In this document: in pieces, positions 1-17,161 of the stretch
Numbering within the stretch: the stretch's first letter is position 1
Layout of the letters: each line of letters opens with the position of its first letter
Made by a program: the position numbers and the translations under genes
Assembly: GCA_963821525.1 (NCBI GenBank)
Contig: CAWGED010000004.1
Span: 1-64,000, forward strand
Direction of reading: 5' to 3'
Source: an uncultured Gemmatimonadales bacterium
Lineage (GTDB): Bacteria > Gemmatimonadota > Gemmatimonadetes > Gemmatimonadales > GWC2-71-9
Length of the DNA stretch: 64,000 bases
Notes under the pieces: model-generated
What the model was told of the DNA's origin: nothing
Seen by the model: the letters and a program-made list of their open reading frames with translations, nothing else
Database searches by the model: none

Positions 1-307
1 GTTATGTGTGGCGCCGCTGAACCAGTCTCTCCTGTATTGCTCGGAGGAGGAGGACCGGCGCTTGGGCCGCGGCGACTCGGCTAGGAAAGGGAAGTAGCCA
101 TCGAACAAGGTCTGGAAGCGCTGCTGCTCATCCGCGCTGGTGGCGAAGATGGGGCACAGGAGAGTGCGGAGGCTCGGTGGGCTGGCAGCGATACCCGATC
201 CTGTTAAACAGGGCCTGCACCCGCAGGTAGTGGTCCACCCCCAGCTCAAAGTGATGATCGTGCAGGGTCTGCAGGAATCCCTCGAGCCACAGCGGCTCCG
301 AGGCCAC
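1..307 (-). CDS. N-terminus of the vWA-type component of a MoxR ternary system (runs off the window edge, frameshifted)
   Basis: GTG at 307 directly after moxR; reads ASEPLWLEGFLQTLHDHHFELGVDHYLRVQALF, then after a shift LCPIFATSADEQQRFQTLFD, resembling the helical N-terminus of MoxR-associated vWA proteins. Confidence 0.55.
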
Positions 308-342
308 CCCACGTCCCCCCGGCTCGATTTTCAGGAACTCCT

Positions 343-1294
343 TCAGCCGGTCTGTGCCTCCTTGTTCTTGGCCAAGATGCTGCAAGTGACCCTGATGGCA
401 TCTTCCCGGCCCAGGCTGGCAGGGTCGGCAGCGAGCTTCCCCTCCCACAGCACCCGGAGCCAGCCCAGGAACTCAGCGGTGGCCGGGGCCTTTTGCAGCG
501 GCTCCTTACGGATGGCCTCGAACTGCGCGATCGCCTGGGTCACTAGAGTCTCCATCTCCGCCGGGATGACTCCCCCGGGAGCGACGCGGGTGGCCACGAT
601 AGCACGCAGGCGCTCCTGGTCCGGAAAACTCAGGTGATAGAAGACACAACGGCGCAGGAAGGCATCGGGCAGGTTCTTCTCCGAGTTACTGGCGAGAATA
701 AGGATGGGTCGGTAGTCCGGTTGAGCTTGGAACCGGTAGCCTTCGGCCTCCTTTACCTCGAACGAGAGATTCTCGACCTCGTGCAGGATGTCGTTCGGCA
801 GGTCCCGTCGCGCCTTGTCGATCTCGTCGATAAGCACGACCTGACCGGGACGGCTCCCCGCTCCCGAGCATCCCCGGCAGCCCCGCCGGCCGGTCCCTTG
901 TGGGAGTCGCGCGGATGATAGCCTCGCCCAGTGCCGAGTACTCGAGGTAGGCGTCGATGGGCAGTGCCTTGCCCTCGGTCGTCCGGTCGTTGAATCGCCG
1001 CAGCGCGTCGTAGTGGTAGAACAGATCCCGCGCTGTGGCGGTGGTGGTGGTATGGAACACCACCAGCCGGAGCCCAAGTTCGTACGCCACGCTATAGGCC
1101 AGTTGGGTCTTACCGGTGCCGGGCTCTCCGGTCACCAGAAGCGGTTGAGAGAGGGTCGCAAGCGCCACGTTGACCGCGGCCCTCAGTCCGACCTCCGCCC
1201 GGTACCCCTCGGGCTGGTCCAAGGCCCGGAGGTCCACCGCCGGTGGGAGTGGAATCCCGCGTTCCTCCGCGGTTTCTCCGTTCCCCTGGTACAC
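343..1294 (-). CDS. MoxR-family AAA+ ATPase (frameshift near 850-900)
   Basis: Walker A GEPGTGKT, DLFYHYDALRRF, Walker B VVLIDEIDKA, NSEKNLPDAFLRRC spread over ORFs 686..1294 and 343..1077. Confidence 0.9.
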
Positions 1295-1317
1295 CCGCCA
1301 ATCGGTGCTAATCAGCG

Positions 1318-2805
1318 GCTACTTTTTTCACTTTGAGGGCACCCAAGGCGCTCGTGCCCTCGATCATGGCGATCAGCTGCGCCTCGGTGATATCCATGCT
1401 CACGAACCGACTCTTCGGCATCTTGGCTTGGCCAAGGATTGCGTTGATCCGCAGTTCGCGGCTCAGCGCGTCGATATCGGTGTACCTATTGAACTATTTT
1501 CTCAGATCGCACGTCGTTCACCGGGTCGAGCGGTGGAAGTACCGCACGGGTCGGGTGCGAGCCGCCGTTGGCCAGCTTCTCCATGCCCCGCCGGACCTGT
1601 TTGGCCAGAGCCGGGTTGTCCGGATCGGTAATGAGCGCAATGAACAGCATGATCAGCGGCTTCGCGCTGCTGGGCGGAAGGGCGGCCCAGAACTCGTCGA
1701 CGTACCAGCGGGCCAACTCGATCGAGACGGCCGCCGCTTTCTTGTCGCCGAGCCAGACCTCGTGCGAGATGGCGACTAGCGGATTCCGCGGAAATCCCGG
1801 CGCGGCCAAGATGTCTGTAGCGCTGGGCCGCTGACCGATGGACGTGCCATTGAAGGCGTCGAGCAGCCGGGTCAGGAGCCGGCGCTGCAGGTCCCGCAGC
1901 TCACCGCCCCTCGGCCAATCCACCGCCTTGGCCAGCACGGTGGTAACTTCGGATCGCCAACGGCCGGACAACTGCAGGTCCGAGAGCTTCCGATGCAACT
2001 CGACGTCCACCAGCCGGTCAATCAGGCTCTCGGGCGGCTCGGTGCGCTCGCCGAATATAAGGTAGGCTTGCGGAGTTCCGGGGCCTCGCTCAGCCGTGCG
2101 GGGAAGCGCTCTACGAAGAGGTCGGCCTGCTTACCGCGGTCGCACAATTTCTCGAGGCGCCATCCGTCCGCCACCCGAACGGCACCGTCCCTGAGGTCCC
2201 ACGCGCTGGGAAGATTTTCGAACGCGACCGTGGCCGGGAGCAGTGGCAGCGTCACTGCGTCCGGCTTCCGGCCTCCGAGATGCTGCGCGCGATCTCCTGC
2301 ACCGCCTGTTTCACCGCTTCACCCTGCTCGGGAGGCCGGAGCAGACTAACCCATACTTGATGTAGTCCGCGCCCAGGCTCGGATGAAAGAACTGGAGTCG
2401 GGACGCAACCTCAGGAAGGGTGCCCTTGAGCGATTCCGGGGGCCCCACAGGATCGGGATTATCCGGTCTGGGAGCGCCTGGTCCTGGTGTTGATCAACGA
2501 ACGCCTGCTGCCGGCGGCGGAAGGCGGTCCATTCCTGCCCGCAGGCTCGCTTGCTGAAATACCGGGGATGGTAGAGTGGCAGAAACACCCGACAGGACCG
2601 GAGCCCTTCCGCCAGGGTAACGGGCCAATCGTCGCCCAGTGGGATGTCATCCTTGTCCAAGAACCCCAGGCGGTCCTGGGGCCAGGCGGTAGCAGTCCGG
2701 AGGGCATCGCGTAGCCTCTCGTAGAACGTCCGGAGCAGCTCCGGCTCGTCCCATTCCTCGCGGTTGTAGCTGAGAAAGAAAAGGTATGGTGAGGTCGTCT
2801 TGACC
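1318..2805 (-). CDS. FxsC-like TIR domain fused to a probable inactive STAND (iSTAND) domain; several frameshifts, start codon unresolved
   Basis: YLFFLSYNREE...GFLDKDDIPLGDDWPVTLAEGLRSCRVFLPLYHPRYFSKRACGQEW (TIR with conserved Glu), LPLLPATVAFENLPSAW, then LEKLCDRGKQADLF and a Walker-less alpha/beta region; directly upstream of moxR. Confidence 0.7.
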
Positions 2806-3315
2806 TGTTACTCTATCCCGCCGGAAAGCTCAAGAATCGGGATAGGCATTTCAATCGCTCGGCTGGACCGTACAGCGAGTAGCAATGGCCGTCAAGGGAA
2901 ACGAGGAGCACTCATCGTCGCTATATCACGCGGCCGTTGCTTTTCCGGTTCAAAGTGCTCGGCTCGAGAGGCGGGCCAATCGCACACGTCCGATCAATCG
3001 CGGCTCGGGAAGGATCACACGACCCCGACCCCGACACACGACGATATGGTCTGGTACACAGGGCCGCCAGTAAGGCACCCGGAGTCGATGGCTTAGTGCG
3101 GTCGTGTCGGCAGTCTGGCGGTGAGGCTGCACAGACTGCAGATTGGGCAATCCGCTACAGATGGTGTCCAGTGACCAACGCGCCGTCGGCGCTGGTAGAG
3201 TCCTCCCGGCTGTTACTCGATCGGGCGGGAACTCGGCTTGGCTGATGGCGGCGGTGTCCTGTCCCAGGCGCGTGACCTCGTGCTCGACTCTCAGGACGTG
3301 TAGCCGGAGGCTGCC

Positions 3316-4269
3316 ATGAAACGGGCTCTCATTGTGGGCATCGATGATTATTCCTGGGCACCGCTGAACGGCTGCGTCAACGACGCGAACCGGGTCAGCC
3401 GCGTTCTTGCGCGGCACGAGGATGGCGAACCGAATTTCGAGTGTAGGCTGCTCGTTGCAGCTCATGGGACGCCGAACACAGTGACGAGGCCTGTCCTGCG
3501 AAAAGCCCTGGAGGAGGCACTCAACCAGCCGGCCGACGTCGCCCTGTTCTACTTCTCTGGGCACGGGACGGTCAACAATCTCGGCGGGTTTCTCGTGACC
3601 CAGGATGCGGCGCAGTAGGATGAAGGTGTTTCCATGCGCAATGTGTTGGAGCTGGCCAACAAAGCTCCCATCAAGGAGGTGGTCATCGGGCTTGACTGCT
3701 GTCACAGTGGTGAGCTCGGTAAAGTTCCGGAGATCGAGAACGATAGCGCGGTTTTGCGGGAGGGTGTCTCGGTCCTCACCGCCAGCCGAGACTCGCAAAC
3801 GGCCATGGAGACCGGAGGGAACGGTGTGTTTACCTCGCTGGTCTGCGACGCTCTGGAAGGAGGGGTGCGGATGTTTGGGAAGGTGACCGTCGCTTCGGTG
3901 TATGCGTACGTGGATCAGGCGCTCGGGGCCTTTGACCAGCGTCCGCTCTTCAAGGCCCATGTCTCCCGATTGCTCTCGTTGCGCCGCTGCAAGCCGGCGA
4001 TCTCCTTCGAGATCCTTCGGCTGCTTCCAAAATACTTCCCCAAACCGGATTACGACTTTCCCCTCGACCCGACGTATGAACCCGACGCTCTTCCGAGAGA
4101 TCCTGAACGTGAGCTCGTGTTCGGACATCTCCGGCAGTACCACGCCGCTCGACTTCTGGTACCCGTTGGCCAGGAGTATATGTACCACGCGGCGATCAAC
4201 TCGAAGTCGTGCCGACTTACTCCATTGGGCCGTTACTACTGGCAGCTCGCTGGGAGCGGCAAGATTTGA
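3316..4269 (+). CDS. Caspase-like peptidase C14 protein, interrupted by an in-frame TAG at 3616-3618
   Basis: KRALIVGIDDY, LNGCVNDA, catalytic FYFSGHG and LDCCHSG; the two ORFs are in the same frame; RBS GGAGG. Confidence 0.9.
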
Positions 4270-4484
4270 AGCCAAGCGTCCCAACTGCAATGCCTGCCCA
4301 AAGCAAGTAGCGAAACTATTGGGAGGCCGGAGACCCGGCCTCGAGGTCAGAGGGTCGCATTATGTCGCGAAGGATCCTCGAAATCTTCCATTCATCGACG
4401 TCGCAAGACCTAGAGGAATGCCGCGCAAGAGTGAAGGATGTGATCGAGAAGTGCCAGGTAAGCCGACAATCGAGGCGGAATGTC

Positions 4485-5597
4485 ATGCCGAAAGTCTTCA
4501 TCGGCTATAGCCGCCAAAGTGAGCGATGGCCAGGACCCTGGTCAACGACGTGGAAGCGCTAGGCTCCGACGTGTGGTTCGATCAGGAGCTGAGCGGCGGA
4601 CAGAGCTGGTGGGATACACATTCTCGAGATGGTCCGCGACTGTGATGTGTTCGTCTTCGTGTTGGACTCGAAATCGCTCACGTCTACCGCCTGTCAGCGA
4701 GAGTTCGCCTATGCGGCGGATCTCGGCAAGCCGATCCTGCCGGTGCTCGTTGCGGACGGGGTGTCCGTGAACCTCCTGCCGCCGGAGCTCTCGCGACTCC
4801 AGTTCATCGACTATAGGAAACAGGATCGTACTACCGCTTTCAGCTTGGCCAAGGCACTCGCCAGCATCCCACCTTCGAAACCCCTGCCTGATCCGTTGCC
4901 ACCGCTGCCGGAGGTTCCTGTCTCCTATCTGGGCGGTCTCACGCAGAGGATCGACAGGGCATCCGCGCTCGGCTTTGAAGAGCAAAGCGCACTGATGGTG
5001 GATCTCAGAAGGAGTTTGAGGGATCCAGAGGCCGCGAGTGACACCCGCACGTTGCTCGAACGGTTGAGAAGCCGACGCGACCTTCTTGCGACGATCGCCG
5101 AGGAGATTGATGAAGTGCTTCGGAGGGAGAGTGGAGCATCATCACGTCCGGGAACGACTGTTGCGCCGACGCCTCCTGTTAAAAACGACCTGCCGCAACC
5201 AGCAGCTACACCATTTCGCCTCGCTGCGCCCGGAACGTGGCCCCAGTGGTCGCGAGGTGCACTTGGCGGGTTCGCCGTAGGAGTAGTGCTGGATGGAATG
5301 AGCTTTGCCCTCTCGGGGCGCGGGTACTGGCTAATAGGAACGGCTCCGGGCATCCCCGTGTTCTCCGTTTTCGGATTGCTCTGGGCAATTCCAGGAGCGG
5401 TCAGCGGGACGCGCAAGAGAGTGATCGCTATCGCGATGGGTGGAGCCTTGGTTGGCTTCGGTGTTTGGGCGGCCGTGGCCCGTGCGGCCGGTGTCGGGGA
5501 GTTTCTCATCGTCGCAACATTCTTCGGGGCGCCAATCGGTTCGCTGTTGGGTGCGATTGTCGGAAGGACCAGGGAAAGCAAGAGGCCTTCGACATAA
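4485..5597 (+). CDS. TIR domain protein with C-terminal transmembrane helices (5' frameshifts)
   Basis: MPKVFIGYSRQS...VWFDQELSGGQSWW...DCDVFVFVLDSKSLTSTACQREFAYAADLGKPILPV; about four Gly-rich hydrophobic segments at the C-terminus. Confidence 0.85.
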
Positions 5598-6042
5598 CGC
5601 AGCTACTGCACAGGAAACCCCGTCAAGAGCCATTCTGCTTCACGCGGTGCGAGCGCGCGCTCCAACGACGCGCGTCACAAGGAGAAAATAGACCCTCATT
5701 CCTTGTTGATGAGATCATATCCAGTCGCGGGCCGGGACAATACAACCACCTCCCCCATTCAACCGAAGGTACTTCTGCGCAGCAGGACCAACGCGTGAAT
5801 CCGACAAGGCCGGTTGGATCAGTCGAGGGTAGTATCGATGCCGATGCCACCAGCTTTGTGGTCACGTCGTCCAGTTTCCGCTCAAGTCAGCGGATGTAAG
5901 CCTGGACTCCGCGATGCAGCGGCTTGGGGACGAAGCCGAGCCGGTTCTTCAAACTTGAACCCAAGCCGTTAGGCGGCTGCACAGCTGTCTGTCTTGGCAG
6001 CCAGAAGTCCCTTCGTGAAGGGATATTGTCAAGGAGATCGTG

Positions 6043-6902
6043 ATGCCACGGTCAACAACAACCTACCGAATCTTCGTTTCCTCCCCGGGAGATGTACAGC
6101 ACGAACGAGAAGCGATGCGGGGCGTCGTGAATGAAATGAACCGCATCCTCGAAGCCTTATTGCCCGACGACGGGTTCTTCGTGGAACTGCGTCTCTGAGA
6201 AGACTTCGCCCCACGCATCGCGGAGGGGCCGCAGCCTGTCGTCAACGAGCAGATCGGACCGTACGATGTGTTCATTGGCATCCTTGCGAAACGCTTCGGC
6301 ACGCCGACGGCCGTCGCGGGCTCGGGCGCCGAGGAGGAGTTTAGGCGCGCCCATGAGAGCTGGCGCAAACACGGAGCGCCTTGGATTGCGTTCTACTTCA
6401 ACACGAGGTTCGAGCCGCCCCAGGGGACAGACGAGCGCGCCCAGTTGGAGAAGGTTCAGGCGTTTAGAGCCGAGCTGGGTACTAAGGGGATTATCGGGAA
6501 ATACAACGGTGCGGAGGGGTTCATGAGCACCGTCCTCCCTCAGCTGTTGCAGATAATCGGCATCCTGATCCGTGAGGAGCGGCACGTGCGAAGTGTCTTG
6601 CGGCATGCTCCAATCCGGTTTGCCGGGTCAATCGCCGAGCAGCCGGTTCCGATCGATAGGAGGGTCAAGATCTCTGAAATCGGAGAGAAGGACGCTTGCT
6701 TCCTCAAGAGAAGAAGTACATCGGGAGAACGGGAGTCATTCCCGAGGCTCAGCAGATTGGAGAGTGGCTCCGAGGCACCTTCCAGTTCGACGAGCCACTC
6801 TTTAATGGGGACGACGGACGCTACACCTTCCTGCAGTTTCAAGTCGTGGAGGCCGACGCCGAAGCTGGAGACAGGACTCCTATCGTTCGAGACAGTACCT
6901 GA
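6043..6902 (+). CDS. DUF4062 (TIR-like) domain protein; in-frame TGA at 6196-6198 and a probable later frameshift
   Basis: RBS AAGGAG; YRIFVSSPGDVQHEREA...DVFIGILAKRFGTPT...SGAEEEF...IAFYF; C-terminus probably continues in the frame of ORF 6696..6902. Confidence 0.75.
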
Positions 6903-6985
6903 AAAGCCGCGACTACCCACCCCTCGCCACCCACCGCACCGGGCTGACGAGGGGCAGGGATTCGTCCGTTCAACGACGACCCGAC

Positions 6986-7244
6986 CTATTTCTTCTTCGA
7001 AGGATCGCCCTCGCGTCCTCCTCCTGGTGGTGGTGGAGGAGTCCCTTGGCGCCCGCCTCCCGGAGGCGGCGGCGGTGTTCCCCCCTCCCCGGCCCCCGCC
7101 CGGAGGCGGCGGCGGTGGTCCCTCTCGACCCCCGCCCGGAGGCGGCGGCGCGCTTCCCTCACGGCCTTTGCCGGGACGTGGAGCAGGTGTGCCCTCGCGC
7201 GACACCATCGGAATCACTCGGTACCGCCGCTTCAGCTGCATCAT
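6986..7244 (-). CDS. Small (~85 aa) Pro/Gly repeat peptide with about 5 x REGxxPPPPGGG
   Basis: AAGGAGG RBS 6 nt before ATG at 7244; one indel in the G-run near 7085 keeps the repeat in frame up to REGDPSKKK-TAG (6986-6988). Confidence 0.6.
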
Positions 7245-7271
7245 GGAGAACCTCCTTAGGGTGTGACCTAC

Positions 7272-10158
7272 CTATCGCGTTGCAACAGCCCGGCCTTCGC
7301 GTAGCGCGGCAAGCCGATGTTCGTAGCGTGTCGCCAGCACGGCGTCACCAAGCTTAGTCGCCGCCTGCTCCCGCAGCCGCAGGCTCGCAGGCAGATACAG
7401 CGTGTACCCAATCGGCCATGCGGAGTCGAAGACGCTGGCAACGTCGAGCGTCCGCTGAAATTCTCCACGAGCCATCAATAGCTGGGCGAGCTGGAGTCGC
7501 TCGCTGCCCCGAGGTGCCGTCAGATCCCAAGGGAGCTCGTCGCCTGGGATAGCCTCAGACAGCACTCCCATGAGCTGTTCGATCGCGGCCACCGTATCGC
7601 CGTGTGCCAGCGCGACCCGCGCGCTCATTGCGTGGGCGCCGGCTCGCTCGTACGCCGCCCCGCTCGTCCGCGCGCGCCTATCGAGCTCCTGTCCGATAGC
7701 GGCGACACTCTCAGTCGCACCGGCGTGATCCGCCCAGAGACCCAGCGCCCAAAGCCGGTTGGGATAGGGACACTTCACGAAGTGCTCACCGAATTGGATC
7801 TCGTCCCGCCGAGCCACGTCGCTCGCTCGATTCTGCAGCTCGGGAACGAGTGGCGCGTCGACCAGATAGAGCGACTTCCCGCCCAGACCGCGCGCAATGG
7901 CTGAATCAATGCGACCTGTGGCCTCCATCGTTCGGCCCTGTGCCAGCAGAATGCCCTGCAGCCCAATCAGAGCGCTCCAGCGGCGAGAGTCACCCCACTC
8001 ACCGGCGACCGTATCATCCTCAAGAACGGCCGTGAACGCCCGACGCGCGCAGTCCATCTGTGATCCTCCCCCCTTCAGCATATTGCCCGCAGCCAGGAGG
8101 GCGAGAGGGTGGGCCTGGGCGCCTTGCCGCCAGTCCACGTGGTCGGGCCCGCTTCGCACACACTGATCCATGAACCTGACCTGAAAAGCCAAGGTCGTAT
8201 CGGGATCAGCTGCGAGGAACTGCCTGACCAGGGGTTCGGCCTCGACGACTTCTCCCCTGCGCAGCCGGATCTCGATGAGATGCAGGAGCAGGGTGGAAGC
8301 TTGGGGGTCGAGACGATGCGCTTCCTCGAAGGCCGACTTCGCCAAGGAGTCGGGATTACCGGTCTCCGGCAGCAGGTGGGTGTACACCTCGCCCAGTAAC
8401 ATCCAGGCGACACCCATTTCCGGGTCCATCGCGAGCGCACGACGAAACTCGGCGGAGGCGGAGTCCGGCTGGCCATTCAAGTAGGCGTTGTACCCCAGAG
8501 CCGAAGTGATGGTATCTGAGAGGCAGCTTCTGGCGGATGGCGACCTGGATCAACGAGTCAGCCTCCTCCGGACGGTGGTTCCAGGTGGCCGCCTGCGCTC
8601 CGCGAATCGCGGCGAGCCCGAACAGCGAATCGGCCTTCACCGCCCTCCGGTAGTGGGCCAGCGCAGAATCCAGATGGACTCGACGAAACGCCGCCTCGCC
8701 GAGCAGAAAGCTCGCGATCGCGCCCGGCTCGCGGTCCTTCCACCCAGCCAGGACATCCGTCGGGCCACCCGGGATGAGCTTGGGAAGCACGTCGTTCACA
8801 GCGTTTAGTCCGGCCTGCCAGGCATCACTGCTCGAACCGCCGCCCTTGCCTCGGCCGATCGTCGAGTCGCCCTGGACGTCGTACAGATCCAGGAATACCT
8901 CCACCGAGTCGCCGCCTCGAGAGACCAGGCGCCCCGTCACGTAGTACGCGCAGCGCTTGGCGCGGGCCAGTGAGCGCGCCGCTTTAAGGGAAAGCGTGCG
9001 GATGTCCTCGCGTTGTTCAGGCTTGAGCAGGGGCCAACCGTCGATCCAGCGGAGTGGCCCAATGCCGTCCAGTGCATTGCCGATCATACTGGCCACGTCC
9101 TCACCGATCGTTCGTGGCCCTACGAAGTTGCCTGGCGCGACCAGGGGGTAGACCATGACCCTATTGGGATCGAGCGGGTGCGATCTCCGGAGCGCGAAAC
9201 GCCAGCCTAGAGCCAATACCCCAAGCGCTGTCACGCCGACGAGAGTGCGAAATAGCGTCCGGCGCCGAGACGAGTTCGGAGTCGGTTCGCTCAAATCGAG
9301 CTCGCGGAGCGCCCGCTTAAACTGCTCTACCGTGGCGTATCGGTCCGCCGGGACTTTGGCGAGCGCCTTCATGACGATGCGCTCGAGCGACACGCTCACC
9401 GTGGGGCGCACCGTCCGAATACCAGGGACCGGATCAACGGCGTGCCGAGACAACACGGCCTGGGGGGTCGGGCCAGTGAACGGCGGACCTCCGACGAGCA
9501 TCTCATAAAGCACACAGCCGAGGCTGTAGCCATCACTCCGGGCATCGACCCGGCCGCCGGCAGCTTGCTCCGGGCTCATGTATGCGACCGTGCCTACGGC
9601 CAAGCCCGAGTCGGTGAGTTTCTCTCCGGTGGAAACGTCGATGGCCCTGGCGATCCCGAAGTCGGCGAGGAAGACGCGCCCCTCGGAGAGCAGGATGTTG
9701 CTCGGTTTTATATCGCGGTGCACGAACCCTTCGGCGTGGGCGGCTACAAGGGCATCTGCTACCTCACAGGTTATGTCGACGGCCTGCCGAATGGTGAGTT
9801 GTCCCTCGCGGTGCATCAGCTGCGTGAGTGACTTCCCGTCCACGTAGGGCATGACAAAGAAGGGGAGGCCGTCTGCTATCCCTGTGTCGAGTACCGGCAG
9901 AATATTGGGGTGGTGCAGATGGGAAAGGATCTGGATTTCCCGGGTGAACCGCTCCCCAGCGATCACCGGCGCCAACTCCGGGCGCACACGCTTCAGCGCG
10001 ACTCTGGATCCTCCGACTAGATCATGAGCAAGGTAGACGGTGGCCATGCCACCCTGACCGAGCTCGCGCTCGATCTCGTAGCGTGCGGCAAAAATGCGTA
10101 GTGGTCCCGCCGAAGTGTCGGTCACGTTCGGCTCAGGGAGGTGGGAAGCTGCAACCAT
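7272..10158 (-). CDS. Hanks-type Ser/Thr kinase with hydrophobic segment and TPR-like C-terminus (frameshift near 8490)
   Basis: LGQGGMATVY, VALK, HRDIKPSNILL, DFGIAR, GTVAYMSPEQ; helical repeats in ORF 7272..8480. Confidence 0.9.
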
Positions 10159-10477
10159 AGGATACAGGCTAACGGCGGGTTGGCCAGCACCGGGCCGCGA
10201 TCTCAAGCCCGCCGCCTGCACTCCCCAGCCGCAGACCCCCGCCGCACCCCAGCCGAGGGGCTTGGGTGTCACCCCTACGCTCGCGCCCCTTACCCCGGAG
10301 GTCCGGGCTGAATTGGAGCGTGTCCGTCGCAGATGGCCAGGAGTCGAGAGGTCTTGATCTTCCCGCGCCCCCACAAGGCGTGTTACGGGGTCGCTTAACT
10401 CCCAGCCTCGATGCCGATCGCAGCCAAGCGTCTCGCCGTAGCTAACGTCCAAGGGTGGTCTTGTCCAACGGCCGCCG

Positions 10478-11470
10478 TCAGAATGGCAAGCGATCTACGG
10501 TAAGCGGCCCTCGCACTCTCAAGATCTCCGGCGCGTACCGAGATATCCCCAAGCTATTTCTGATCAGCGCGGTCCGAGGATCTACCCCGGCCCCTACGGA
10601 TTCACTCACTCGAAGCGCGCGTTCCACGCTGATCCTTGCTTCACTGAGGCGCCCTTGGTCCCGAAAAAGGCGTCCGAGATTGTGAAGAAGCAACGCCAAA
10701 TCGAGACTATCGCCGCCTCCTATTTCCTCCGTCGCGGCGACCGCGTGTTTAAGACACACCACCGCCTCTTCGAGTCTCCCTTCATCCGCGAGAATCCCGG
10801 CGAGATCGTTCCGACGACTGCTCGCCTTGTGATCCCCACGGTGATTCTTCTCCTCGTCAATATCCACTGCCCTCCGGAGCAGTGCTGTTGCCTCCTCTGA
10901 TCCTCCGAGGTCTCGGATCACGTTGGCGAGATCGCCGAGCCGATCGGCGGTTTCCGGATGACTTGGCCCTACAACACGCTCTGTGATCCCCAGGGCCTCT
11001 TCATAATGCGACTTTACGCTCCCTAGATCGCCGATGTCACGCTCAATTGTTCCTAGATTGCTAAGGCAGGTTGCGTAATCAACACTGTTTTTTCCGCTCG
11101 CCTTTTGCCACAAAGTCAAGGCTGTCGGGGCTGGAACGACCTGCGCACCAAACAGGGCCGTCACGCCCTCACCAGCAGTGACAACGGCCTGGGTCGTCAC
11201 TAGGACTGTTACGGAGACATCCGGAATCAGGGATGAGAGCTCAAAGGTCGGTGACGACATAGTGGCATAGATCGTCGCCGAGCCGGCTTGGTGCGGAGTG
11301 AGAGTGGCGTTGTTCCCGCTCTGGGAGACGCTGACGATCTGCGAATTCGTTGTTTGCCAAGTGATTGTCGACGGGGAAGGTGGGAGTGCCTCGCAGGGGT
11401 TTTGTCCGCAGAGAGCTAGGTTCACTCGTTCGAGCCATGAGGCAGGATTCAGTGCGCCGGTGGTGCCCAC
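10478..11470 (-). CDS. Ig-like (BIG2-like) segment joined to TPR repeats; possibly a mosaic remnant
   Basis: TITWQTTNSQIVSVS...AGSATIYAT followed by YATCLSNLG...YEEALGITERVVGPSHPETA...LLHNLG repeats. Confidence 0.55.
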   Translation of the reverse strand: MGTTGALNPASWLERVNLALCGQNPCEALPPSPSTITWQTTNSQIVSVSQSGNNATLTPHQAGSATIYATMSSPTFELSSLIPDVSVTVLVTTQAVVTAGEGVTALFGAQVVPAPTALTLWQKASGKNSVDYATCLSNLGTIERDIGDLGSVKSHYEEALGITERVVGPSHPETADRLGDLANVIRDLGGSEEATALLRRAVDIDEEKNHRGDHKASSRRNDLAGILADEGRLEEAVVCLKHAVAATEEIGGGDSLDLALLLHNLGRLFRDQGRLSEARISVERALRVSESVGAGVDPRTALIRNSLGISRYAPEILRVRGPLTVDRLPF

Positions 11471-11556
11471 GGATCGTCATGCTCGCAGGGCTAGCCAAGC
11501 TGGGTTGACACGGGCATCGGTGCACTGGCGGGCTACAAGCGGTACCTTCTACCTCT

Positions 11557-14500
11557 ATGGGAGTCACACCCCGACCAACTCGGGTCTTCATTTCGTACTC
11601 GCACCATGACGCGGGGCCGGCGCAGAGGCTACAACGCGACATCTCGGTCGAAGGATTCGAGGTCTGGCTCGACCTCGCTCGGCTCAGCGGCGGCGAGAGC
11701 TGGACGGCCGAGATCGAGCAGGCCCTCGACAGAAGCGACGTGGTGCTGGCCTTGTTGTCGCGGGGTTCATTCGTCTCGGATACCTGCAGGGCAGAACAGC
11801 TTCGTTCGCTTAGGAAGGGCAAATGCGTCATCCGATCCTCGGGCAGGCGGATACCGACCGGCCCATACATCTGGAGGCCAAGCAGTTTCTCGACTTTTCG
11901 GAAGACAAGACCTACGACCGCCAGATCCTACAACTTCTGAACGCTATCCGACGCAGGGACGGTGTAGCGCTGATCAAGCAGTTTCGTCAGACCTACGTCA
12001 CAATGCCTCCGCTTCCGGCGAACTGCGTCCAGAGGCCGCGCGAGCTCGAGGCGCTGCGGCGCGCAGTCATTGGTGATGGGTCTGCTCGCCGCATCGCTCT
12101 CACTGCGCTCAAAGGGATGGCCGGCATCGGCAAGACCGTTCTGGCACAGTCGCTGTGTCTCGATGAGGCCACACAGGCGGCCTTCCCGGACGGAATCATT
12201 TGGCTCGCCTTGGGTAAGGATCCACGCGATCTAGTGCCGTTGTTTCGAGAGGCGGCTAAGGCGGTTGGAGACTCGTTGGAAGGCTATGACAGCCTGCAAG
12301 CGGCCAGCAACCGGCTCCGCAGCCGTCTGCGAGACAAATCGGTGTTGATCGTTTTGGACGATGTCTGGGATCCTCGCGATGCTGCGCCGTTCTTGACAGA
12401 CTCCCCGCGGAGCCGGCTTCTGATCACTACCCGTGACGCCCGCGCTGCGGTGGCCCTAGGCGCGAGCCAGCAGGAGTTGGACGTCCTTACCTGGGAGCAG
12501 TCGCGACACCTGATGGCATTGTGGGCCGACTGCCCTACCTCGGAGCTTCCACCTGAAGCAGGGGAGATTATCAGAGAGTGTGGCTGTCTGCCATTGGCCG
12601 TGGCAATGGTCGGCGCCCAGATGCGTGGCAAGCCTGATCGCTGGAAGAACATCCTGCAGAAGCTTCGTAACGCAGATCTCGACCGGATCCGCCAGAGTTT
12701 TCCCGACTACCCACATCCCGATCTCTTGCGGGCTATCGACGTGAGCATGGAAGCTTTGAGCGATGACCTGCGCAGTCGGTATCTCGCGTTCGCTGTCTTT
12801 CCGGAGGACTGCCTGATTCCGGAACCCGCCGTCCGAACGCTTTGGGGACTCGACCAATACGACACGGAAGACGCAACCGATCAGCTGGTCGATCTGTCGC
12901 TCCTAGCCCGCGACGACGACAAACGATTGCGAGTGCACGATCTAGTCCTGGACTACCTGCGACACCGCTTGGGGGCAGAGCGGTTGGTCGATAGTCATAA
13001 TGAACTCCTGCGGCGCTATTCGCTGATGTGCCCCCATCATTGGTCGGAAGGGCCGCAGGATGGATACTTCTTCGAGAATCTGATCTGGCACCTTCGCAGC
13101 GCCCAGCGGGGAGATGAGGCGCTCCGACTGCTGGCCGATTTCCGTTGGCTCGACGCGAAGCTGCGAGCTTGCGGCGTGGTGGCGCTGCTTCTCTGATTAT
13201 GAGTGGTACGCCTCGCGCGACGACAATGCGAGCTTGATCCAGGAAGCACTTCGCTTGTCAGCTCACCTGCTGGCCATCGATGTGACCCAGCTGGCGGGTC
13301 AACTGCTCGGCCGTCTCCTAGCGGACAATCTGGCGTAGTCGATCTGCTCCGGGCCGATGCCAGCGGTTTCGCGGAGGGCCTTGGTTACGCCCCCTGCGGC
13401 AACTGCTTCCCGGGCCGGGCCGCCCGTAATGTTATACTCTTCGGGCCACGCCGGCCGAGTGCGAAGTATCGCGCTTACGAAGGACGGCCTCAGGGTCGTC
13501 TCGGCATCCGACGACACCACGATAAAGATCTGGGACCTTCGCCGCGGGACCTGGAACGGACGCTGACCGGGCACGCCGACTGTGTCAGAGCAGTAGCGGT
13601 CCTACAACAGGGCGACAGAGCCGTGTCTGCGTCGGACGACCACACGCTCAAGGTCTGGAACCTCTCGACTGGCGAGGAAGAGGCCTGCATCGATACGCAA
13701 TTGGACTGGATTCGCCTACTGGTGGCCTTTGCAGATGCGCCGCGCGTCGCGTCGATATCCGACGACCGCACCATCAAGATTTGGAACCTCACAATAGGAA
13801 CAGTCGATAGAGTGCTGCGTGGGCATTCGGCCGAGATTAGCTGCCTAGCCATGATTCCCGGTGGCGGTGGGCTCGTTTCCGTGCGGATGACCGCACGCTG
13901 CGCCTCTGGAGCCCAGACCACGAGGGCGCAGCGGAAATCCTGAAGGGCCATCGCGCGAGGATTACAGCATTGGCTGCAGCGGCCGGCCGGATCGTGTCAG
14001 TATCAGCGGATGGCGCGGCGCGACTGTGGCACATCGGCGCTGAAAACGACTCGCGACTCTTGAACTGGAAGGCGTATGGCATCCGCGACGCGGCGTTCAC
14101 GCCGGATGGCACTACGATCATCGCGGCCGGAGACGACAACTGCCTGCATCTATTGGACCTGAGGAGCGACACTGAACGGGTTATAGAGGGCCACTCCGAT
14201 TGGGTGAGCCGTATCGCAGCAAACCCCGAACGGCCGTTATGCGGTGTCGGCTTCGGATGATGGAACCCTCAAGGTGTGGGACCTGAGTCGAGTAACGCGG
14301 GAACAATGATGCGCGACCACGATGACCGGGTCCGAGCAGTCGCTGTGACGCCGGATCAGCGGACCGCCTTGTCCGCCTCGGACGACCACACGATTCGCAT
14401 TTGGGACATGGTGACGCGAAGCGTGCGCCGGGTGGTCCAGAATGATCACCAGTGGGCGTTCGCGTGCACGCCAGATAGTTCGACGGTGGTATCCTCTGGT

Positions 14501-15189
14501 GGCACGGGCATGTGCTACGTATGGGATCTCGAATCGCAACAGGAGCTGCACCGCTTCCGGATACACCAGGATCGGGTACGCTGCGTGGCCGTGGCACCAT
14601 GTGGAACCCGGGTTGTATCTGGGGCCGACGACAGCACTGTACGGGTGTGGGACATTCAATCAGGAAAGGAAATGCTTTGTATCAACCTTGAGCGTCAGTG
14701 GCCACGCGCGGTGGTCATTACGCCCGATTCCCGCTTCGCGATCACGGCGGCGGAGAGCGCGAGTCTTAAGTTGTGGGATCTCGAGAATGGCGCCGATCTC
14801 CGTACTTTTCGCGGCCACACGGCGCGAGTCAATGCGGTCGCGGTGACCCGGGATGGCCGGCTCGTGGCGTCCGGCTCCGACGACCACACCTTGCGAGTCT
14901 GGAGCCTGAGCAGTGGTTCGACCATTACTGTCCTTCGCGGTCATCATGCGAAGGTGAATGCACCTGGCGTTCCTGCCTCGGCGACACTTCCGTCGTCTCC
15001 GCATCGGACGATGGGGATCTTCGCGTGTGGGATGTCATGAGTGGCGCACCGATGGCCTGCCTCAGCATTGAGACTCCATTGCTAAGCTGCGCGGTCATGT
15101 CCCAGACGGGGGAGATTATTGCCGGCGATCGGCTGGGGTTGGTTCACTTTGTGGCATGGGAAGCAATCCAAGGGCCAGCTCAAGCGTAA
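11557..15189 (+). CDS. Apaf-1-like NLR: TIR - NB-ARC - helical domain - WD40 repeats (multiple frameshifts)
   Basis: VFISYSHHD/WLD/CRAE TIR; GMAGIGKT, LIVLDDVW, LLITTRD, GCLPLA, VHDL; more than 10 GH...SASDD.T..WD repeats ending IIAGDRLGLVHFV. Confidence 0.92.
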
Positions 15190-15207
15190 TCTTGTATTAG
15201 GTGACTC

Positions 15208-16832
15208 ATGCCAAGAGACTCAGCTCAGACGAAACTGGAACGGGTAAGACCTCCCCGCGTCCACATAACAGACAAAACCACACGCGGCGGCGCGGTCGAC
15301 CGACGCGAGTTGCCGTTCGTCATCGGGGTCTTGGGGGACTTCTCAGGCGCGACTGGTCCATACCCTCGACCTTCCCTTCGAAACCGTAGGTTTGTGACGA
15401 TCAACTGGGACAATTTCAATGAGGTTCTCGCGTCGCTGGAGCCACGGGTCCGTTTCAAGGTCCCGAACCCCTCTGGCGGTGACGCCCTCGACGTTGACCT
15501 CACGTTCAAAAACATCGACGACTTCCACCCGGCCAGCCTTACCCAGCGGATCGAGCCGCTGCGCGCCCTGCAGCTCTCGGAATCGCCCGACGCCCGGGAC
15601 TCGTTGCGGTACTACCTCGATCACGTCCTACACACGCCCGAATTTCAGAACCTCGAGTCGGCATGGAGAGGACTGTGGTACCTGCTTTCCCGAACTGAGA
15701 CGAGTGCCCAGCTAAAGATCAAGTTGCTCGACGTCTCCAAACAGGAGCTGCGTCGTGACCTGCAGAGAAGCCCAGAACCCGATCAATCAGCGCTGTTCAA
15801 GAAGGTGTACGAGGAGCCGCTCGGGGGGGTTGAAGGGGGACCATTTGGGCTGTTCATAGGGGACTTCGCATTCACCATGGTGCCAGAGGATGTCGCCCTA
15901 TTGGAAGATCTGGCGGAGATAGCGGCCCGTTGCCTCGCCCCGTTCATTGCTGGCGCAACAGCGGGAATACGGCCTGGAAAGTTTCGCGCGGGTGAGTCAC
16001 AGGTCCTGATCTCGGCCAAGTCTCCAGGAGCCGGCGTGCGCACAATGGAGGAGTTTTCGGAAATCGGAGAGCTCGCGTTTATGAGGCCTCACGGTGCCGC
16101 GCATTCTGTTGCGATCTCCCTATGGCCTGCGCCCCTCAAATCCGGGAGAGTTTCAGTACGCCGAGGAGACCGTCCGCAGCAACCATTTGTTGTGGGGAAA
16201 TGCCGCATATGCGCTCGCTGCCTGCATTGCCAACGCGTTTGCCCTCTATGGATGGTGTGGCAGCATCAGGGGAGTGGACGGAGGCGGGCTGGTCGAAGGG
16301 CTCCCCACCTGGGTTCACGAGTTCGAGGGTGGAAAGCTGAGGTCCGCCGTCGAGGTTCTGATCACGGACAGGCGCGAAAAGGAGTTCGCGGATCTCGGCT
16401 TCATACCGCTTGTGCACATAGTCGGGGCGGAGTACGCGACGTTCTTTTCCGTCCCATTGTGTATGCAGCCGAGGATATACGACCTTGACGCCGCGACCGC
16501 GAACAGTCGACTGTCGTGCCAGCTGCAGTATGTCCTCACGGCATCCCGCTCGCACACTACCTAAAGGTGATAGCGCGTGATCGCCTCGGCTCGTTCCTGA
16601 CGCGCGGAGACATGGAGCGGCTTCTGAATGATTGGATCTCGCAATACGTCCTCACGGACGATCAGGCATCGCCGGTGATCAGGGCTGGTTGCCCCCGCTA
16701 CGCGAAGCCAGGATTGACGTGGCAGAAGCCCCAGGGAAGCCTGGAGTGTATCGAGCCGTGATGTTTCTGCGCCCCCATTTTCAGCTCGATGAGCTGTCGC
16801 TCTCCTTGCGAATTGTCACCGATCTGAACTGA
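15208..16832 (+). CDS. tssBC: Single-chain TssB-TssC (VipA-VipB) contractile sheath fusion protein (frameshifts in the 3' half)
   Basis: TssB motifs KLERVRPPRVHIT, ELPFVIGVLGDFSG, RRFVTINWDNFNEVL, LTFKNIDDFHP in frame with TssC motifs VLHTPEFQNLESAWRGL, DQSALFKKVYEE; later PRILLRSPYG, LWGNAAYA, GWCGSIRG..GGGLVEGLP, ITDRREKEFADLGFIPL, FLRPHFQLDELSLSLRIV. Confidence 0.92.
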
Positions 16833-17161
16833 ACGGGCAGGGGCGCGCGTCGCCGGGCTAGACGATTCGAAGTGGTGGGGAAAGACGAATCGCCGATCGG
16901 GGCTCAGGAACGGATCACCGGGCCGTACATTTCCAGAAGCCGATCTCCCCCTCGGCCAAGACGTCGTAAACCACATCCGTCCGAAGGGAGTGGTAAGCTC
17001 GAGCAAAGCGGGCGTCGGGGATGACCTTCTTCCTCAATCGCCCCTTCTATCTGGTGGTGGTCCTGATCATCCTGGCCGTCACGCTTGCGCTCCCACCCAC
17101 GGACCTCGAACGCGGCGGCGCCAGTGTGCTGTGCGCAGCCATCCTCACCTTAGGGCGTGCT

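Follow-up and report, generated by a model that had tools for sequence, protein, structure and literature searches.

Positions 11,557 to 16,832 of the window, by which we mean the whole 64,000-nucleotide stretch analysed here (contig CAWGED010000004.1 of an uncultured Gemmatimonadales bacterium), contain a conserved two-gene cassette that is co-inherited across two phyla. The first gene encodes an Apaf-1-like NOD-like receptor (NLR) with an N-terminal TIR domain. The second gene encodes TssB and TssC, the two sheath subunits of a type VI secretion system (T6SS), as one compact chain without domain 3 of the sheath protomer. The cassette is neither a T6SS nor a catalogued defence system. It is new as a whole, and its parts come from known families. 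The evidence suggests that the receptor uses a converted sheath part as a tripwire. We propose, at a probability of roughly 0.45, that the fusion serves as a bait or co-sensor and that its state of assembly turns on the TIR enzyme of the NLR. This reading was ranked first, over the polymerising effector, the guarded decoy and the tail-assembly inhibitor as they had been worded in an earlier note on the sequence.

The two genes together span 5.3 kb, and intact copies of the pair exist. The earlier note had described a TIR-NB-ARC-WD40 NLR followed after 18 nt by a single-chain TssB-TssC, and the Pfam matches and coordinates agree with this description. In the window, the TIR_2 match covers 11557-11940, the matches to NB-ARC, the APAF-1-like winged helix domain (WHD) and APAF1_C lie within 11823-13196, and pieces of WD40 follow up to 15189. 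The NLR has the features of the Apaf-1-like signal transduction ATPases with numerous domains (STANDs): an NB-ARC domain with Walker A, Walker B and xHD motifs, a WHD, a helical domain and a WD40 sensor. By analogy with Apaf-1, the WD40 region may form two beta-propellers. No N-terminal CARD or caspase was found with Pfam; the TIR domain is located there instead. The best solved-structure match of the orthologue at locus L018 is Apaf-1 (E 5e-43), and the next PDB matches are ZAR1-type NB-ARC domains. The NLR subfamily comprises 38 clusters at 62-95% identity, and the next proteins below share 54% or less. Walker B is present in all 38 members and Walker A in 35 of them, the other three being shorter proteins that start after this motif. 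The Glu that we take to be the catalytic residue of the putatively active TIR domain is conserved in 35 of the 35 members examined. Domain scans of the window and of the homologous loci detected no adaptor domain in the NLR. PADLOC 2.0 (2023), the libraries of which hold no models for Avs8-24, gave no Avs or bNACHT match for the NLR. The only matches were generic, to HEAT-ARM_XIII in the WD40 part and to TIR-domain, and the fusion had none. Every NCBIfam match of the NLR was under its cut-off.

The NLR gene ends with TAA at 15187-15189, the fusion starts with ATG at 15208, and its final stop codon is at 16830-16832. The AGGTGA that had been noticed ahead of this ATG is present, only 3 nt from it. 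The promoter and terminator scan gave no signal better than chance. VipA(2-128) and VipB(11-130) share a single frame, 15208-16488, and the remaining TssC is spread over three more frames up to 16832. Since VipA and the start of VipB are in one frame, the fusion itself is not the product of a frameshift; this origin was also rejected on account of the many intact homologues. The structure model of the fusion reached a predicted local distance difference test (pLDDT) score of 87.7, and its best fold matches are T6SS sheaths. The ESM Atlas returned TssB/TssC clusters only.

The loss of domain 3 was not remarked on in the earlier note. The compact fusion family is 531-545 aa long. The homologue P0001 covers residues 1-116 of the 160 in the TssB model and 60-470 of the 473 in the TssC model. 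The absent parts, TssB 117-160 and TssC 1-59, correspond to domain 3, of which only a stump is left. The junction stands in for about 100-120 residues, namely the C-terminal helices of TssB and the N-terminal helices of TssC, and most compact members have 41-42 aa between the DFxP and ExxWR motifs, versus 121-216 aa in full-length fusions. According to the literature, these helices form domain 3 and are the target of ClpV, which binds VipB 15-28 (PMC4632598, PMC5807055). Domains 1 and 2 of the sheath protomer and both the N- and the C-terminal arms are present in the compact fusion. Among 30 main-clade compact rows (8 divergent or partial rows were left out), the equivalent of VipB D333 is kept in 27, versus 64 of 64 ordinary TssC proteins, and that of K223 is K or R in 24, versus 63 of 64. 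K223 is reported to be needed for sheath assembly and D333 for contraction (PMC5797969). The window copy has D at the D333 site and Gln at the K223 site, the latter close to indels. The compact fusion looks fit to enter a lattice, with a constraint that is relaxed or altered, and seems beyond the reach of ClpV.

A quick tree was built from 86 TssC regions, after three rows without the anchor motif had been dropped, and was rooted at the midpoint only. In this tree, a branch with a Shimodaira-Hasegawa-like approximate likelihood ratio test (SH-aLRT) value of 100 sets the 38 compact rows apart, next to fusions that have intermediate deletions. A recent duplication of the host tssC as the origin of the fusion was rejected, as the compact fusions form a single clade. 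The nearest kin of this clade are the 560-603-aa fusions P0035, P0037, P0038, P0041, P0044, P0077, P0506 and P0508, with intermediate deletions of domain 3. A divergent compact subclade with altered arms (P0021, P0028, P0032, P0034) is represented by L097:3386-5023, where the upstream gene encodes an M50 peptidase-CBS protein. At L212:9451-11060 (G090:C10) a shortened TssB-TssC fusion is located behind a sodium/sulfate symporter gene. Divergent, C-terminally short fusions adjoin ordinary T6SS genes at L014:3602-5257, L107, L116, L120, L136 and other loci.

The linkage of the two genes was assessed in other genomes. The genome search yielded 135 relatives of the fusion, and among the best 80 loci, which were examined, five carry compact fusions (L017-L021, from Acidobacteriaceae, Terriglobia, Bryobacteraceae, Gemmatimonadaceae and Solibacteraceae). 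An orthologous NLR gene is located directly upstream of the fusion in all five, which belong to Acidobacteriota and Gemmatimonadota; two of these NLRs are cut by the contig start. The distances between the two genes are -26, +2, -8, +33 and +15 nt. The flanks of the cassette are unrelated among the five loci and consist mostly of non-defence genes. The two-gene module with a co-opted sheath, postulated from the window alone, is thus found again in five of five genome loci, inherited as a unit and outside T6SS clusters, and the gene upstream of these five fusions is the NLR each time. Since five other genomes share this gene order, an assembly chimera, a possibility raised in the earlier note, is also ruled out as the source of the pairing.

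An indirect test compared the lengths of the longest contigs of 87 fusion and 74 NLR proteins. Exactly equal lengths were obtained for 23 NLR/fusion pairs, one of them being L018, against a chance mean of 0.2. The matches cover 17 of the 63 fusion clusters; with contigs of 8 kb or more, they cover 16 of 25 fusion clusters and 15 of 26 NLR clusters. No matches were found for the controls, which were 78 more distant NLRs, 17 intermediate fusions and 50 other fusions. The trees of 14 NLR/fusion pairs agree (Mantel rho 0.78 on distances, 0.88 with the NB-ARC domain). The cassette is rare. The best 80 loci of the metagenome search included one whole compact fusion, L097, and a C-terminal fragment, L098, without upstream DNA. 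No further compact-clade fusion was found in 300 genomes each of Bryobacterales, of the order of G042 and of the host's phylum, with four candidates scored per genome, and a search of 300 genomes of this phylum for the NLR was also negative. In the viral contigs, a single tssBC, of the ordinary split kind, was found and compact fusions were not, so carriage by phages is unsupported.

Domain scans revealed no T6SS genes beside the fusion in the window or at L017-L021, and the idea that the fusion belongs to a T6SS cluster was rejected, as no locus seen has T6SS neighbours. All five other carrier genomes encode tssC, hcp and tssF elsewhere. The term orphan, which had been applied to the sheath gene, therefore fits the locus and does not hold genome-wide for these carriers. 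The base rates of tssC are 140 of 300 genomes in the order of G045, 50 of 300 in the order of G042 (including the unpublished G645 and G661) and 27 of 300 in the host's phylum. The carriers thus have a T6SS more often than these rates would lead one to expect: the rough probability of a T6SS in at least five of six carriers is 0.0014, or 0.010 with the rates raised by half; this estimate places G041 in the same order as G042 and ignores genome size and kinship. In G000, the window's own genome, a T6SS elsewhere had been regarded as worth looking for; none was found in the assembly, which is 81% complete, and the fusion is its only TssC. For ClpV, G000 gave sub-cut-off matches only, in frameshifted pieces of the Clp family. 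By RpoB, the host probably belongs to Gemmatimonadota, as the protein of a congener shares 69-71% identity with that of a Gemmatimonadaceae member and 47-50% with those of Acidobacteriota and Planctomycetota. A lone gp19-like tail tube gene is located near tRNA-Cys at G000:C4:423738-424151 (L265:11709-12161); the open reading frame starts around it give no evidence of tail genes, the neighbours not having been domain-scanned.

We propose that the cassette is a mobile two-gene unit of immune type, in which the NLR would be the switch and the carrier of the enzyme and the compact TssB-TssC a dedicated bait or co-sensor that has kept the arms and lattice residues and lost the ClpV handle. The fusion may be drawn into a sheath or templated on a tube of the Hcp/gp19 fold. 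Because the ClpV handle is lost, it could not be recycled from there. Altered subunits are known to co-assemble with the wild-type sheath in vivo (PMC5797969). This change would be read by the WD40 sensor, which may bind the polymer or, alternatively, lose a monomer that had been bound to it. Oligomerisation of the NB-ARC domain would follow, and the clustered TIR domains would cleave NAD+, leading to arrest, death or a signal. The most likely lattice would be the T6SS of the host itself when it is perturbed or fires during an attack, and phage tail tubes are the second candidate. Binding, polymerisation, the trigger, the NADase output and the role in defence are what we infer; the gene content, the conserved linkage, the loss of domain 3, the kept motifs and the T6SS in carriers were observed.

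Several findings weigh against the role as bait or co-sensor. Nine of the 25 fusion clusters with long contigs have no NLR match, and an equal longest contig implies a shared contig only, which need not mean that the genes are adjacent. Linkage by itself would make the trees congruent, and their agreement indicates joint inheritance, not physical co-evolution. The whole fusion L097, of the divergent subclade, has the M50 peptidase gene and no NLR upstream, and L212, just outside the compact clade, is also without NLR. Conservation is below that of ordinary sheaths in eight of the eight segments compared, with 0.68 versus 0.84 in the N-arm, 0.70 versus 0.87 in the C-arm and 0.65 versus 0.82 in the inner helix. 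A Pro found in 64 of 64 ordinary TssC proteins is not among the six commonest residues at that column in the compact fusions. In view of the variable interfaces and the replaced Pro, polymerisation may be weakened or gone. The base rates of T6SS come from incomplete metagenome-assembled genomes with only four candidates scored in each. Hcp, TssF, VgrG and TssM were not found in G000 at its completeness of 81%, and no tssC was found in four congeners, so the host T6SS may be dispensable.

The same linkage data, together with the retained polymer arms and the missing recycling handle, would also fit a fusion that acts downstream of the receptor. The NLR alone would sense a phage protein, and its ring would nucleate ClpV-resistant fusion tubules that amplify the signal or kill the cell, like the ASC filaments of animals. 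Tubules can arise from sheath subunits without a T6SS (PMC4632598), and the cassette is present in a genome in which no T6SS was found. However, the NLR already has a TIR domain with the Glu, no adaptor domain was detected in it, and the co-occurrence with T6SS is left unexplained. There is also a mismatch of symmetry, as sheaths are six-start and Apaf-1 rings are sevenfold. We regard such an amplifier as unlikely.

A somewhat less probable explanation takes the fusion as a subunit with a dominant-negative effect, by which the host T6SS is jammed or tuned, with the NLR controlling it or enforcing the upkeep of the cassette and with no role in defence. A TIR-NLR of 1200 aa, co-inherited over two phyla, would be superfluous for such a brake. 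The cassette lies beside a T6SS cluster in no locus seen, and the window copy is located among TIR and caspase genes. The T6SS in five of five other carriers and the mostly non-defence flanks of L017-L021 are nevertheless in line with it, as is the dominant block of the T6SS by mutant subunits (PMC5797969).

It is improbable that the fusion is a degenerate sheath gene which was captured behind the NLR gene and rides along without joint function. The relaxed conservation of the fusion and the absence of the NLR beside some compact or shortened fusions are compatible with passive linkage. On the other side, the frames are open over their full length, which is near-constant, the identity is 48-85%, the gaps range only from -26 to +33 nt, and the linkage was kept though all flanks have changed.

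The reading frames of the window copy are interrupted. The frameshift-aware alignment to intact homologues showed 11 breaks in the NLR gene and 6 in the fusion, about one per 310 nt. The core genes at 36.5-41.2 kb contain about 10 single-base insertions relative to both congeners G001 and G002, about one per 400-450 nt, and rpoB has 3 in 4.5 kb. The break density in the cassette is like that of nearby core genes, and assembly error is thus the most likely cause. That the window copy is a decaying pseudogene pair or a chimera, a matter of this genome only, is very improbable: the 17 breaks in 5.3 kb, compared with 3 in 4.5 kb of rpoB, and the lack of a detected T6SS in the host genome point that way, but the similar indel density of nearby core genes and an end branch of 0.39, inside the range of intact members, argue against it.

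A second module combining a sheath and a TIR domain was found in G326 and G310 (2 of 301 genomes, two loci). In this module, a ClpV-N-TIR gene is arranged head to head with a gene for a full-length TssB-TssC fusion that ends in a TssA-like piece. The flanks differ between the two loci. Both genomes also carry ordinary clpV and tssC. About 25 of the 150 representatives listed at 50% identity span both ClpV-N and TIR, and the TIR Glu is conserved in 22 of 23 aligned ClpV-N-TIR proteins. The N-domain of ClpV is the natural reader of the contracted sheath (PMC4632598), and so the second module suggests that TIR domains are brought together by a sheath polymer. In the tree, the sheath protein of this module sits on a long branch at a great distance from the compact clade, and its recruitment was probably independent. 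A broader and more tentative proposal, to which we give somewhat less credence than to the bait itself, is that the T6SS sheath was made an immune tripwire at least twice, once with an NLR and a ClpV-proof sheath and once with ClpV-N-TIR and its own fused sheath, so that the state of a sheath, that of the host T6SS included, would alarm TIR NADase signalling. The TssC encoded at L177:10375-12819 (G045:C3), far from the T6SS clusters of that genome, stands alone and is extended at its C-terminus by about 300 residues that belong to no Pfam family; it groups with the L213 sheath protein on long branches in the quick tree.

To our knowledge, no role other than that of a spring is known for the T6SS sheath. 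The compact fusion resembles TssB/TssC (VipA/VipB; PDB 9N4V, 3J9G, 5N8N, 5URX) in how domains 1 and 2 fold and in their sequence, in both arms, in D333 and mostly in K223. It differs in being one chain with a domain 3 stump, with no adjoining T6SS gene and with a fixed NLR neighbour. Natural TssB-TssC fusions of 550-680 aa, full-length or intermediate (for example in records named Vibrio gazogenes and Thalassolituus), are likewise single chains, but in contrast to the compact clade they have domain 3 wholly or partly retained. The NLR shares NB-ARC, WHD, helical domain and WD40 sensor with Apaf-1 and bacterial Apaf-1-like STANDs, and differs in having TIR in place of CARD or caspase and a co-encoded sheath partner. 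With Avs and bNACHT STANDs it has the layout of sensor, ATPase and effector in common. Avs families sense the tail tube, the tail terminator and other structural proteins, and the cofactor of Avs7 is host EF-Tu. In contrast to these systems, the partner is encoded inside the NLR cassette, and the role in defence is putative here.

Plant NLRs form guard and decoy pairs such as ZAR1-RKS1 and RPS5-PBS1, and NAIP senses parts of secretion systems. The proposed logic, with an NLR that keeps watch over a disarmed version of a functional protein, would be analogous to the plant pairs; the cassette differs in being bacterial, in its WD40 sensor and in a decoy that is a polymer-forming secretion subunit. 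Bacterial Apaf-1 orthologues have been reported, with the tail sheath listed as a still-open target (Lee et al. 2026, PMC13581612). The accessible part of that paper has no mention of T6SS, and TssC, VipB, ImpC, EvpB and T6SS were not found in seven of its text supplements. In the accessible part of a 2026 review of T6SS accessory factors (PMC13584744), TIR or NLR is not mentioned. No description of the NLR/sheath pairing was found in the literature searched, which excluded subscription papers and bioRxiv supplements. If our proposal is true, a subunit of a secretion machine has been recruited to bacterial immune signalling, and the cassette is a bacterial case of the guard and decoy logic of plant NLRs. 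The cassette names a candidate partner for bacterial Apaf-1-like STANDs and allows a direct test of whether the state of the T6SS feeds into cell-death decisions.

Table 1. Features of the cassette, of its surroundings and of the second sheath-TIR module (window positions unless a locus is named)
Feature	Position	Strand	Basis or remark
Apaf-1-like TIR-NB-ARC-WHD-HD2-WD40 NLR, about 1200 aa	11557..15189	+	Pfam; collinear with intact homologues P0172, P0164, P0186; 11 small indels in assembly
TIR domain; putative catalytic Glu80 at 11794-11796	11584..11960, end approximate	+	TIR_2
NB-ARC domain; Walker A GMAGIGKT 12114-12137; Walker B LIVLDDVW	12099..12692	+	Pfam, motifs
Winged helix (xHD motif) and Apaf-1-type helical domain	12765..13400, end approximate	+	PF21296, PF17908, xHD motif
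WD40 sensor region	13440..15170, limits approximate	+	WD40 matches, alignment to orthologues
18-nt intergenic gap with AGGTGA 15199-15204; no terminator-like site on + strand	15190..15207	+	Sequence scan
Compact single-chain TssB-TssC, about 540 aa, without domain 3	15208..16832	+	Pfam; alignment to homologues; small indels in assembly
In-frame TssB/TssC junction	15570..15610, limits approximate	+	Motif spacing; short helix-turn-helix in model
Strain-specific island: cassette, two more TIR genes, caspase, AAA ATPase, kinase/TPR genes	1 to about 17,000 (1..16900)	.	Domain scans, congener comparison
ClpV-N-TIR gene divergent from TssB-TssC-TssA-like gene	L213:5737-9416 (G326:C36); L256:5605-9136 (G310:C65)		L213 copy in TIR/TPR-S island

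The location of the cassette in a defence island, as had been claimed, is borne out by two more TIR genes, a caspase gene and an AAA ATPase gene, and by the absence of the region from four congeners, in which the first 17,000 nt or so of the window have no match except generic kinase DNA. Located at 3316-5597 on the plus strand are a frameshifted caspase gene and, behind it, a TIR gene whose product has a predicted membrane tail, a pair that resembles TIR-caspase defence pairs. On the minus strand, an FxsC-like TIR gene, a gene of unknown kind and an AAA ATPase gene with a frameshift are lined up at 343-2660, an arrangement that resembles MoxR-type conflict systems. Divergent from the NLR gene, at 7272-11470 on the minus strand, are genes for a TPR protein and a Ser/Thr kinase-TPR protein; the genus has dozens of such kinase paralogues.

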